DNA of 64,000 nucleotides from Candidatus Saccharimonadales bacterium (lineage in GTDB: Bacteria > Patescibacteriota > Saccharimonadia > QS-5-54-17): assembly GCA_040903985.1 (NCBI GenBank), contig JBBDUI010000002.1, positions 104,204 to 168,203 on the forward strand, in the 5' to 3' direction. Below are positions 6,424 through 8,850 of the stretch, one piece after another. The position numbers and the translations under genes are program-made. How positions within the stretch are numbered: position 1 is the stretch's first letter; the number at the start of each line of letters is the position of its first letter. Under the pieces are notes generated by a model, which was not told the origin of the DNA, searched no databases, and saw only the letters and a list, made by a program, of their open reading frames with translations.

Positions 6424-6459
6424 GTACTTTTTTACTTACGATCGTGAGTAAAAAAGTAC
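6424..6459. terminator. Bidirectional terminator hairpin between convergent genes
   Basis: gtacttttttactta-cgatcgtga-gtaaaaaagtac. A/T-rich flanked stem. Confidence 0.55.
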
Positions 6460-6713
6460 AAAATTATTATGGCTTAAGATAGGAGCAAAGATGAAGTTTG
6501 TAACAATTTTTTTGACGATCGCAAACAAATTCATTACAAATTATTACTGAGAGAATGATTAATATTTCATAAAGAAAAACCACGGTAGGCTTTCGGTGAC
6601 GAGATCGCAGAGCGATCAAGTACTGAAAGTTACCGTGGTCGGTGGGCCGGGTTATCGTACCGGCTGGTGTCTGTCGATAGATCGACATCCGTACGGTGGA
6701 GAGTAGCTATGTC

Positions 6714-6869
6714 CTAGCGTTTGCCAGAACCGCAGCAGTCTTGGCATTTGCCAGAACGATCACAGGTAGTGCAGCCCCAGCTCGACAAGCCTCCGGCACC
6801 TCTCCTGTCGCCCTGACCACGGCAGTCCGGGCACTTCTTAGTGCCGTTGCAGCCAGTACAGCGGGCCAT
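6714..6869 (-). CDS. Small Cys-rich protein (51 aa) with DnaJ-type CxxCxGxG zinc-finger-like repeats
   Basis: Translated by hand as MARCTGCNGTKKCPDCRGQGDRRGAGGLSSWGCTTCDRSGKCQDCCGSGKR. AAGGAG Shine-Dalgarno 6 nt upstream of the ATG. Not in the ORF track because it is under 60 aa. 26 nt downstream of the preceding same-strand gene. Confidence 0.5.
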   Translation of the reverse strand: MARCTGCNGTKKCPDCRGQGDRRGAGGLSSWGCTTCDRSGKCQDCCGSGKR

Positions 6870-6895: not shown

Positions 6896-7246
6896 TCAGT
6901 GCCTAGCCGGGAATCCGATGGAGCACGAGCTCACCTGGATATAACCCCTGCGTGAACGATAGTCGAACAAGCCATTCATGTGCAGAGGAAATACTCCCTC
7001 CACGCTCTTGTCCTCGATGCGGCCGACGAACTCAAAGGCGTTAACCCTAAGGTCGTCACCATCCCAATGCCTAATGCTGTCACCATCCCAATGCCTAAGG
7101 CCAGTGATGACTGCCTCGCGATGGCAGTCGGCGACGCAGAACACCACTGTATGCGGGTTCTGCTCATCAAAGGCATACTTCAGCGCATCACACAGTCCGT
7201 CTCGAGAAGGTCCGTCCGTGAGGGGAAGTCTTTCGATGGAAGCCAT
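6896..7246 (-). CDS. Hypothetical protein (116 aa) containing a 24-bp tandem duplication
   Basis: The internal ATG at 7246 with AAGGAG SD is preferred over the track start at 7348, which would overlap the tRNA. Tandem 24-bp repeat at 7055..7102 encodes RHWDGD twice. Confidence 0.5.
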   Translation of the reverse strand: MASIERLPLTDGPSRDGLCDALKYAFDEQNPHTVVFCVADCHREAVITGLRHWDGDSIRHWDGDDLRVNAFEFVGRIEDKSVEGVFPLHMNGLFDYRSRRGYIQVSSCSIGFPARH

Positions 7247-7323
7247 ACGGCTCTCCTTGTGAAGGTGCTTCAATGATATCCCGCCGCTGGCGGGACCACC
7301 TCTCCATACGGACAGGAATTGAG

Positions 7324-7465
7324 TGGTCCTGGTGGGACTCGAACCCACGTCCTCTGCACAGATGCAGGTGAGTAGCTTGCGCTTGATAGGCTACGGCCGG
7401 CGCCGACCCTAACCTATCCTCACCAATTCAATGCACAGCGCTCTACCTGGCTGAGCTACAGAACC
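7324..7465 (-). tRNA. tRNA gene interrupted by a ~68-nt structured insertion in the anticodon loop; anticodon unresolved; CCA not encoded
   Basis: 5' half GGTTCTG-TA-GCTC-AGCCAGGTA-GAGC-G-CTGTG. 3' half TGCAG-AGGAC-GTGGG-TTCGAGT-CCCAC-CAGGACC-A. These give a 7-bp acceptor stem, canonical D and T arms, and an anticodon stem CTGTG/TGCAG. The intervening 75 nt contains nested helices GGTGAG/CTCACC and GATAGG/CCTATC. Confidence 0.55.
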
Positions 7466-7533
7466 AATATTTTATATTAAAATAATATCGTCAGGTAATG
7501 TCAATAGGTGTTATCTGTTACAATAGAGCGTAT

Positions 7534-8850
7534 ATGAGTAAAAACCTTCCCATCGTAACCATCGTGGGCCGTCCCAACGTTGGCAAATCCAGCCTATTCA
7601 ATCGCCTGCTCGGCGAACGTAAAGCTGTTGTCTCCGATACAGCCGGCACTACTCGCGACCGCGTTCAAGCCATTGTAGAGTGGGGTGGACGAGATTTTTG
7701 GTTAATTGATACAGCCGGACTAGAGGCAGCTGAGAACGAGCTAGAGGCCTCGATGCAGGCCCAGCTCGAGGTAGCCCGCTCCCAAGCTGACGTGATTCTA
7801 ATCGTGATCGACGCCAGCACTATCTTATCCGACAGTGACAACCGTATCATCAAAGACGCCTATAAAAGCGGTAAGCCGATCATCGTAGCGGCTAACAAAT
7901 CCGATCGTAAACACCCTCAGGTCGAGTTCGACAAACTTCCAGCTAAACAAGTGGTGCCGGTTTCGGCCATTCACGGTACCGGCAGCGGTGATTTGCTTGA
8001 TGCCATCATCGCCCACGTCCCCAAAGTCCGCGTAGATGCAGAGCTCCCGCCAGCTATAGCTATCGTCGGTCGGCCGAACGTAGGTAAATCCAGTCTACTC
8101 AACGTCCTAGCCGGTGAAGACCGGGCTATCGTAGCTAATGAAGGTGGCACCACCCGTGACGTTAACGATATCGACATCGTCCATGAAGGACTGCCCTGGC
8201 GACTGCTCGATACGGCCGGTATACGTAAGATTGGCAAACGCGCCCACGACATCGAACAATACTCGACCCTGCGCACGCTCCGCGCCATCAATGATAGTGA
8301 TGTCTGCGTGCTAGTAACCGACGCTAACGAGCCGGCTACCGGGCAGGACCAACGCATCGCCGGCATGATCAAAGAGGCTGGTAAGGGTATGTTAATCGCG
8401 ATTAACAAGTGGGACTTGACCGAACGCAGCGATGCCGATGTCCGTCGGCTTGAACTCGAGTACCAACGACGGTTCCAGTTCGTCTGGTGGGCACCATTAG
8501 TTATGACCTCCGCCACTACCCGGCACAACGTTTTTAAGATCATCGAGCTAGCTAGCACCATCCAAGCTAACCGTCAGCGCAAACTGACCACCAGTGAGCT
8601 TAATACCTACCTCCGCGACGCCATGAGCGCCCACCCACCGGCCGGATTGAAGAACCGCCACCCTAAACTGAAATACATCACCCAGACCGAGGTCGCCCCA
8701 CCGACCTTTACCGTCTTCGGCACCCATACGCCGTTTCTGCACTGGTCTTATAAACGGTTTCTCGAAGCTCAGCTCCGAGACCGCTATGACTTCACCGGCA
8801 CCCCAGTTCGTTTTCAATGGCGTAGTAGTAAAAAGGAAGAGGCAGTATGA
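7534..8850 (+). CDS. der: Ribosome-associated GTPase Der (EngA), two tandem GTPase domains plus KH-like
   Basis: Two G1 motifs GRPNVGKSSLFNRL and GRPNVGKSSLLNVL. DTAG and NKxD motifs twice. Confidence 0.9.
   Translation: MSKNLPIVTIVGRPNVGKSSLFNRLLGERKAVVSDTAGTTRDRVQAIVEWGGRDFWLIDTAGLEAAENELEASMQAQLEVARSQADVILIVIDASTILSDSDNRIIKDAYKSGKPIIVAANKSDRKHPQVEFDKLPAKQVVPVSAIHGTGSGDLLDAIIAHVPKVRVDAELPPAIAIVGRPNVGKSSLLNVLAGEDRAIVANEGGTTRDVNDIDIVHEGLPWRLLDTAGIRKIGKRAHDIEQYSTLRTLRAINDSDVCVLVTDANEPATGQDQRIAGMIKEAGKGMLIAINKWDLTERSDADVRRLELEYQRRFQFVWWAPLVMTSATTRHNVFKIIELASTIQANRQRKLTTSELNTYLRDAMSAHPPAGLKNRHPKLKYITQTEVAPPTFTVFGTHTPFLHWSYKRFLEAQLRDRYDFTGTPVRFQWRSSKKEEAV

Follow-up and report, generated by a model that had tools for sequence, protein, structure and literature searches.

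What is the role of a bacterial gene whose two ends fold as the halves of a tRNA but which carries a long structured arm where the anticodon loop should be? The gene in question spans 142 nt from the 5' end of the acceptor stem to the discriminator A73 and lies on the minus strand (7324 to 7465) of the window, by which we mean the whole 64-kb stretch of DNA that was analyzed. Its limits are given by Rfam, by ARAGORN run with its intron option (-i), by the minimum free energy (MFE) fold, and by an ortholog in a related genome (L122). The initial annotation had described canonical tRNA halves on the minus strand, consisting of an acceptor stem GGTTCTG/CAGGACC, a D arm GCTC/GAGC, a T arm GTGGG-TTCGAGT-CCCAC and A73, and each of these elements is present exactly as described. 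The Rfam tRNA model (RF00005) matches the gene from end to end with 48.1 bits against a gathering score of 29 (E = 3.3e-7 in the 64-kb window), and the halves thus pass the covariance-model check that had been proposed for them. Since the alignment skips 79 nt at 11 model positions, the gene holds 68 extra nucleotides, the same number that had been estimated for the insertion in the anticodon loop. The sequence observation is correct and is no product of chance. The parts of the RNA are as follows.

7459 to 7465, minus strand: 5' strand of the acceptor stem, GGUUCUG, which pairs with CAGGACC (7325 to 7331) over 7 bp
7440 to 7456, minus strand: D arm, GCUC-AGCCAGGUA-GAGC, with G18, G19, A14 and G15 present
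7434 to 7438, minus strand: 5' strand of the anticodon-stem equivalent, CUGUG, which pairs with UGCAG (7354 to 7358) and could be extended by a C-G and an A-U pair
7359 to 7433, minus strand: structured arm of about 75 nt in place of the anticodon loop, on which the MFE and centroid folds agree
7419 to 7424 with 7367 to 7372, minus strand: helix P1 of the arm, GGUGAG/CUCACC, from the fold
7385 to 7418, minus strand: long hairpin P2 of the arm, 9 bp plus 5 bp, with a GC-rich tip at 7395 to 7408 and the loop GCGC, from the fold
7374 to 7383, minus strand: mini-hairpin P3 of the arm, AGC-GCAA-GCU, with a GNRA loop, from the fold
7332 to 7348, minus strand: T arm, GUGGG-UUCGAGU-CCCAC, from the sequence and Rfam

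The 142-nt RNA is predicted to fold with -66 kcal/mol (z = -4.2), and none of 200 dinucleotide shuffles was equally stable. The nested helices noted earlier in the insertion, GGUGAG/CUCACC, GAUAGGUUA/UAGCCUAUC and the GC-rich tip, are all found in this fold, to which the P3 mini-hairpin, previously omitted, has to be added. As P3 is a third small hairpin in the insert, the arm would form a three-way junction. The 'top half' of the tRNA is complete: the acceptor stem has its 7 bp, the D and T arms are both present, and no elbow or tertiary nucleotide is missing. Equivalents of G15-C48, U8-A14, G18G19 and T54-A58 can be read from the sequence. The gene does not encode CCA, as A73 is followed by CUC in the window and by CUG in L122. 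Within the lineage, three tRNA-Glu genes (in the window, L123 and L124), which represent one isoacceptor, do encode CCA and end in ...TCACCA.

The gene is surrounded by der/EngA, pth, dprA, a gene for an RluB-like pseudouridine synthase, and two-component systems, and the Der protein of the window is 100% identical to a protein from a Candidatus Saccharimonadales MAG. Because of these neighbors and this match, the host is, on the evidence of its genes, a bacterium (Candidatus Saccharimonadales, CPR) and not an archaeon. An archaeal origin had been considered for an AT-rich upstream stretch that resembled a TATA box, and it was overruled by the same bacterial neighbors and Der match. The gene order in relatives is HK, RR, rluB-like, der, pth, dprA. 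In those with Der proteins that are 59-71% identical to that of the window (L123 to L126 and L134 to L136), the rluB-like gene is followed after 20-180 nt by der, with no tRNA-like gene between them; the window and L121/L122 (Der 72%) have an extra ~1 kb at this place, and in L127 the cassette likewise adjoins der. Given its absence from relatives at 59-71% Der identity, the cassette is accessory and patchily distributed: it is an insertion of about 1.1 kb between the rluB-like gene and der in a Candidatus Saccharimonadales subclade. It begins with a single sigma-70 promoter, followed by the tRNA-like RNA, a conserved leader hairpin and then ORF1 (116 aa) and ORF2 (51 aa). Its features outside the tRNA-like RNA are as follows.

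7476 to 7504, minus strand: sigma-70-type promoter read from the sequence, TTGACA (7499 to 7504), 17-nt spacer, TTTAAT (7476 to 7481)
7296 to 7320, minus strand: leader hairpin AAUU-CCUGUCC-GUAU-GGAGAGG-UGG, 3 nt past the tRNA-like 3' end
7280 to 7294, minus strand: second hairpin CCCGCC-AGC-GGCGGG, with no U tract and not called as a terminator
6896 to 7246, minus strand: ORF1, 116 aa, with the RBS AAGGAG at 7253 to 7258 and the signature DGPSR..L.DALKYA
6714 to 6869, minus strand: ORF2, 51 aa, with four CxxC motifs and, from its sequence, a DnaJ-type CxxCxGxG-like zinc finger
6645 to 6666, minus strand: conserved 3'-UTR hairpin GCCGG-UACGAUAAC-CCGGC

The promoter of the window ends 10 nt before the 5' end of the tRNA-like RNA. 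The promoter scan rejects it for the sole reason that its second -10 base is T, and the orthologous promoters in L122 and L127 (TTGACA-17-CATAAT, 11/12) are called. No intrinsic terminator was called before ORF1 in the window, L122 or L127, the hairpins at the equivalent place included. These predicted signals establish that one promoter serves the tRNA-like RNA together with both ORFs, with no terminator before ORF1. The leader hairpin is kept with compensatory changes (CCCUUCC/GGAGGGG in L122 and CCUCUCU/AGAGAGG in L127), and in L129, which has an ORF1 homologue and no tRNA-like gene, the predicted transcription start, or mRNA 5' end, falls at the CCUAAUUC leader motif. A search of metagenomes with the leader-hairpin pattern gave 0 matches, and one with the pattern of the tRNA halves gave 3, none of them of the window type. 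In phage DNA, likeness to the tRNA-like gene was limited to the T arm and involved a tRNA-Lys.

The products of the two ORFs offer few clues. The ORF1 family consists of only 5 proteins, with no members in viral contigs and no phage matches, and its predicted fold, a beta-barrel, gives no hint of function. ORF2 is 65-67% identical in L121/L122, has no database homologue, and yields weak Pfam hints. In L121 and L127, the ORFs are followed by a hairpin similar to that of the 3'-UTR, CCAGCYGG-UACGAYAA-. Pairing of the arm with the start region of ORF1 was also considered, and since the only matches were of 6 nt and fell at places that differ between the two species, they were treated as chance.

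On the opposite strand, the longest der ORF starts at 7498, with its ATG inside a TTGACAT block, and the database Der of 438 aa corresponds to a start at 7534. An extended -10 element, TGTTACAAT, lies on the plus strand about 9 nt before the ATG at 7534, so that der may have almost no leader and a promoter that overlaps the divergent promoter of the cassette. The TTGACAT block is also found upstream of der in L135, where it is kept together with the CTAACAGATTA block and where there is no cassette, a caveat to its reading as part of the cassette promoter. At the other end, between the ends of the rluB-like gene and the cassette (6430 to 6480), the AT-rich sequences GTACTTTTTTAC...GTAAGTAAAAAAGTAC form an inverted repeat that resembles a bidirectional terminator. 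The G+C content of the window is 0.56 between 60001 and 64000 versus 0.49-0.54 elsewhere, and no rRNA or other Rfam family was called in that segment.

Whether the tRNA-like RNA is maintained can be judged from its ortholog in L122 (3810 to 3935, minus strand), to which the Rfam tRNA model assigns 51.8 bits with 62 nt skipped. The acceptor, D, anticodon-stem-equivalent, P1, tip and T helices were compared, the equivalence of the P1 and tip helices being assumed from position. All 32 stem pairs are canonical in both RNAs (non-canonical cells, 0/64); 19 are identical, 4 have changed on one side, and 9 have changed on both sides. Of these 9, four belong to P1, three to the acceptor stem, and one each to the tip and the anticodon-stem equivalent. 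The L122 acceptor stem reads GGUGACG/CGUCACU, with 3 of its 7 pairs changed on both sides and pairing kept. The D stem is identical and the D loop differs at 2 positions, the anticodon-stem equivalent is CUGUC/GGCAG, and the T arm is GUGGG-UUCGAAU-CCCAU. The L122 arm, at about 60 nt, has another sequence but the same plan and the same GGCGCCG tip. At tertiary and loop positions, those of the D, T and variable loops included, 20 of 25 nucleotides are identical. The two species share only 72% Der identity, and neither the interior of the arm nor the flanks can be aligned between them. The L122 RNA is not significantly more stable than its shuffles (z = -1.6). Covariation between the two intact examples known (window and L122, n = 2) demonstrates purifying selection on all helices of the tRNA-like RNA in these lineages. 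Moreover, the gene is not decaying, because its stems have been kept by 9 double-sided changes at 72% Der identity. The earlier suggestion of an inactivated tRNA is therefore apt with regard to decoding, which is almost certainly lost, but not with regard to decay, of which there is no sign in these two lineages.

Two related cassettes have lost parts of the element. In L127, the tRNA-like part is cut to about 60 nt and has no T arm, and in L121, whose Der and ORF1 proteins are the same as those of L122, its 3' half has been replaced. Given the truncation in L127 and the replacement in L121, the tRNA-like RNA is dispensable for the ORFs of the cassette. A comparison of L121:3770-3860 with L122:3700-3830 shows that in L121 about 85 nt with three other hairpins stand in place of the T arm, the leader hairpins and the acceptor strand of the 3' half, which reflects either a strain-level replacement or an assembly chimera.

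A further question is whether the insertion is removed from the transcript. Like intron-containing tRNAs, the gene has mutually pairing halves around an insertion in the anticodon region and is missed by default finders, including default ARAGORN in the window. With ARAGORN -i, the window gene is modeled with the loop AUUGAAU, the anticodon UGA and an intron of 66 nt at 37/38, the stem being effectively 6 bp long, whereas the L122 gene is modeled with the anticodon UCC, an intron at 31/32 and a pyrimidine (U37) at position 37. A genuine spliced tRNA is expected to keep its anticodon and splice site, and as the forced models differ between the window and L122, the intron reading is unsupported. 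Thus, the intron-model check proposed in the initial annotation did return a model, but one that its ortholog contradicts, and the proposed comparison of orthologous loci went against an intron as well, since the insert of L122 is different and neither the anticodon nor the forced intron site is common to the two. When every single excision was enumerated for the window (5-bp stem, 4- or 5-nt variable loops), none gave U33 together with R37. The earlier statement that no simple splice yields U33 does not hold if the stem is shifted by one base, as in the ARAGORN -i model.

Known types of intron do not account for the insert. Group I tRNA introns, which had been doubted because the insert is too short, are several-fold longer, with an expected length of a few hundred nucleotides and a P3-P9 catalytic core that is conserved; the insert measures 66-79 nt, and Rfam detects no group I core in it. 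The covariance search of the insert that had been suggested found no group I, ribozyme or other Rfam family at E<=10 with permissive filters, and hammerhead, twister and other ribozyme motifs, sought by eye and with Rfam at E<=10, were not found. Archaeal introns of the BHB type have a bulge-helix-bulge at their junctions, and the doubt cast on such splicing was justified: a scripted scan of the window and L122 found no BHB motif that excises the insert, its matches involving the T arm or the interior of the insert, and in five archaeal loci from our genome survey that served as controls (L008, L030, L045, L050 and L111) the same procedure recovered the canonical motif at 37/38. Excision of a group I or BHB intron restores a canonical loop, with the same anticodon in orthologs, which is not so for the window and L122. 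With no Rfam or group I match, no BHB motif, and no anticodon or forced intron site in common with L122, the small spliced or processed intron that had been proposed finds no support. Most likely, the insertion is no intron and stays in the RNA permanently, and the tRNA-like RNA is almost certainly unable to decode. A 7-nt direct repeat, CTGTGCA, flanks the insert and was considered as a target-site duplication; it is not a transposon scar, because removal of one copy along with the insert leaves no anticodon arm.

We also scanned one genome per species for a tRNA D arm, 65-95 nt, and a T loop. The scan returned archaeal intron-bearing tRNAs and many bacterial loci. About 37 bacterial loci with a D arm, a long insert and a T arm have rsr within 8 kb, and about 20 bacterial loci have a perfectly pairing acceptor stem around an insert of 41-57 nt. 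One group, designated family A, consists of 17 loci from Myxococcota, Gemmatimonadota, Nostoc, Armatimonadota and others, whose anticodon arm becomes perfect once the insert is excised at 28/29 or 29/30.

L005, L006, L014, L032, L036, L038, L041, L044, L067, L070, L074, L078, L090, L101, L103, L114 and L131: family A, with a 51-57-nt insert at 28/29, often in tRNA arrays

The anticodons of family A vary even among Nostoc orthologs (GTT, TTT, GTA). A protein with TROVE and vWA_Ro60 domains (Rsr/Ro60) is encoded next to 15 of the 17 loci, and the insert carries GCCGAAGG, which fits the published Ro60-binding motif GNCGAAN0-1G, and has two helices that covary. The Rfam YrlA model gives family A 31-36 bits, below its threshold, with each match extending across two adjacent units. 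Taken together, the rsr adjacency, the Ro60-binding motif and the YrlA matches identify family A, at the level of predicted features, as the known YrlA class in another circular frame, and its members look like YrlA Y RNAs in a tandem, non-permuted form. YrlA has been described as a circularly permuted tRNA mimic that possibly arose from a dimeric tRNA (Chen et al. 2014, PMC4201824; Wang et al. 2018, bioRxiv 10.1101/312249).

The window RNA resembles YrlA in being a non-decoding mimic with a D arm, a T arm, an acceptor-type stem and tRNA tertiary contacts, and also in that the position of the anticodon stem runs on into a long helical module. In YrlA this module binds protein; a partner for the module of the window RNA is suggested by analogy. 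YrlA is permuted, ends in the Ro60-binding helix and has an acceptor stem closed by a loop, whereas the window RNA has an open 7-bp acceptor stem and a capped arm; and YrlA contains GNCGAAN0-1G and adjoins rsr, whereas the window RNA has neither the motif nor rsr within 64 kb. A tblastn search of the window with four Rsr proteins found nothing below E = 0.16, and we found no report in the literature of Ro60 in Saccharibacteria. The motif has no match in the window RNA or L122, where one-mismatch strings occur at non-equivalent positions. The YrlA model (RF02553), whose gathering score is 69, gives the window RNA 12.8 bits and aligns to its T arm alone, and a covariance model of the Rsr-linked family A inserts gives the window arm 0.8 bits (E 4.9, filters off) and no match in L122. 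Membership of the window RNA in YrlA is unsupported, the tRNA-like module being the sole feature that it shares with the class among those tested. By analogy, it may still work like a Y RNA, combining a tRNA-shaped handle with a protein-binding arm.

Other known systems are similar in part. In tmRNA, too, the two termini pair as an acceptor stem next to a T arm, and the place of the anticodon arm is taken by a large insertion. However, tmRNA is about 350 nt in length, has no D stem, and has G3-U70, a tag frame and pseudoknots, whereas in the window RNA positions 3-70 are U-A and there is no tag ORF. ARAGORN -m found no tmRNA in the window, L121, L122 or L127, and the Rfam tmRNA_permuted model gave the window RNA 14 bits versus a gathering score of 47. 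In the metY-rimP-nusA-infB operon of Escherichia coli, a normal decoding tRNA is co-transcribed with protein genes, and mascRNA and the t-elements of plant mitochondria are tRNA-like processing elements of eukaryotic or organellar origin. What the window cassette shares with these is that an mRNA is headed by an element of tRNA shape, which tRNA-processing enzymes would split from the message. To our knowledge, there is no bacterial example of an anticodon-less tRNA shape with an extended arm.

The balance of probability tips toward a lineage-specific, tRNA-derived mimic that does not decode and from which the insert is not removed. According to this model, transcription would start 0-4 nt before the acceptor stem, and RNase P (if needed) together with an RNase Z-type cut after A73 would free a stable RNA about 142 nt long. 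Owing to the RNase Z-type cut, the ORF1-ORF2 mRNA would then begin at the AAUUCC hairpin. Once free, the tRNA-like RNA would engage tRNA-binding proteins through its elbow and acceptor stem, and the long arm, by analogy with YrlA, would be a platform for a partner protein, which could be ORF1, ORF2 or an unlinked protein. A bolder version, which we put forward tentatively as one that may well prove wrong, is that the RNA represents a new class of mimic, non-permuted and anticodon-less, whose arm recruits the beta-barrel ORF1 and the zinc-finger ORF2, or another partner, into a small RNP. Such an RNP might plug into the tRNA-handling machinery of a genome-reduced CPR bacterium that gives no sign of Ro60 in the 64-kb window. 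Alternatively, the element may be only a cis-acting module for processing or stability, in which RNase P/Z cleavage sets the 5' end of the ORF1-ORF2 mRNA in the manner of 'tRNA punctuation' or t-elements, the arm drifts freely since an anticodon arm is unneeded for processing, and the released RNA has no function. The promoter held in common with ORF1 and ORF2 and the lack of a terminator between them fit such a module, as do the distance of 3 nt from the tRNA 3' end to the conserved leader, where the primary 5' end is predicted to lie in L129, the fast divergence of the arm sequence beside a conserved top half, and the dispensability of the element in L127 and L121. Free drift, however, does not predict that the arm would remain a long paired helix with compensatory changes and keep its GGCGCCG tip, and L129 and L127 are predicted to express the same ORF with no need of a tRNA-like element. 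For these reasons, a module of this sort is an unlikely explanation in our estimation.

It is rather more improbable that the gene is the relic of a tRNA that was disabled when the insertion destroyed its anticodon loop and has decayed slowly since then. Such a history would explain why there is no readable anticodon and no encoded CCA, and why the element is patchily present and truncated or disrupted in L127 and L121. It is at odds with the 32 canonical pairs and 9 double-sided changes and with elbow nucleotides that are kept at 72% Der identity, a distance at which neutral DNA is expected to be unalignable, as is seen for the interior of the insert and the flanks, and with a promoter that is strong and conserved. 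A tether of the Y-RNA type, with an arm that binds a Ro60/Rsr protein encoded elsewhere in the genome, would have its ends in the acceptor stem and its Ro60-binding helix capped by a loop, so that the overall shape would be that of YrlA turned inside out. The ~37 bacterial loci with rsr within 8 kb lend this idea some appeal, and the window arm has GCCGUAG, one mismatch from GNCGAAN0-1G, beside its GC-rich hairpin. Yet the motif itself is unmatched and the near-match in L122 lies at another position, no Rsr/TROVE homologue occurs in the 64-kb window, and the scores with RF02553 (12.8 bits versus 69) and with the insert model (0.8 bits, none in L122) are low, which makes a tether of this type highly doubtful. 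Hardly credible, finally, is the idea that the gene yields a tRNA that decodes, after the loss of a short bacterial intron of a new kind either through self-cleavage or through a novel pathway with an endonuclease and a ligase. ARAGORN -i does place a 66-nt intron at the canonical position 37/38 of a tRNA(UGA), and Patescibacteria are unusually rich in tRNA introns, although those reported are of group I (PMC13011429). The model nevertheless demands a 6-bp anticodon stem and combines UGA, which is a serine anticodon, with A73 and a class I body; for L122, the result is UCC with U37 and another intron site; and neither a BHB motif nor a match to a ribozyme or group I intron was found, nor is CCA encoded, unlike in the tRNA-Glu genes.

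A non-decoding mimic would join tmRNA, YrlA and viral tRNA-like structures as cases in which the tRNA shape is reused to reach tRNA-binding enzymes. If the conserved, anticodon-less shape holds in this Saccharibacterium, it would be a new architecture, having an open acceptor end, a capped long arm and no Ro60 nearby, and its link to two mini-proteins provides an experimental handle. Default gene finders miss such genes, and finders that allow for introns wrongly report them as tRNA-Ser or tRNA-Gly with an intron. These mis-calls can corrupt tRNA inventories of CPR genomes as well as claims of bacterial tRNA introns in them.

Further loci with unusual tRNA-like genes were encountered. Three of them in Lachnospiraceae/Blautia (L016:1954-2068, plus strand; L075:7065-7177, plus strand; and L096:862-977, minus strand) have a different insert of 41-42 nt at 28/29, AAAAA..GGTCTTTG.CAAAGACC..CAGCAAT. 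Excision restores the anticodon GAT in L016 and TTG in L096, and none was found for L075. No rsr was found near these three loci. The L096 gene lies downstream of Septu-like PtuA/PtuB genes and a GNAT gene; a link to Septu was dropped, as neither of the other two loci of this type has these genes. In two CPR genomes, one of Azambacteria (L081:1299-1430, minus strand) and one of Saccharibacteria (L073:701-831, plus strand), the 3' half of a normal tRNA, consisting of the T arm and acceptor strand, is repeated no more than about 50 nt after the tRNA itself, which is the pattern of an element integrated into a tRNA gene.
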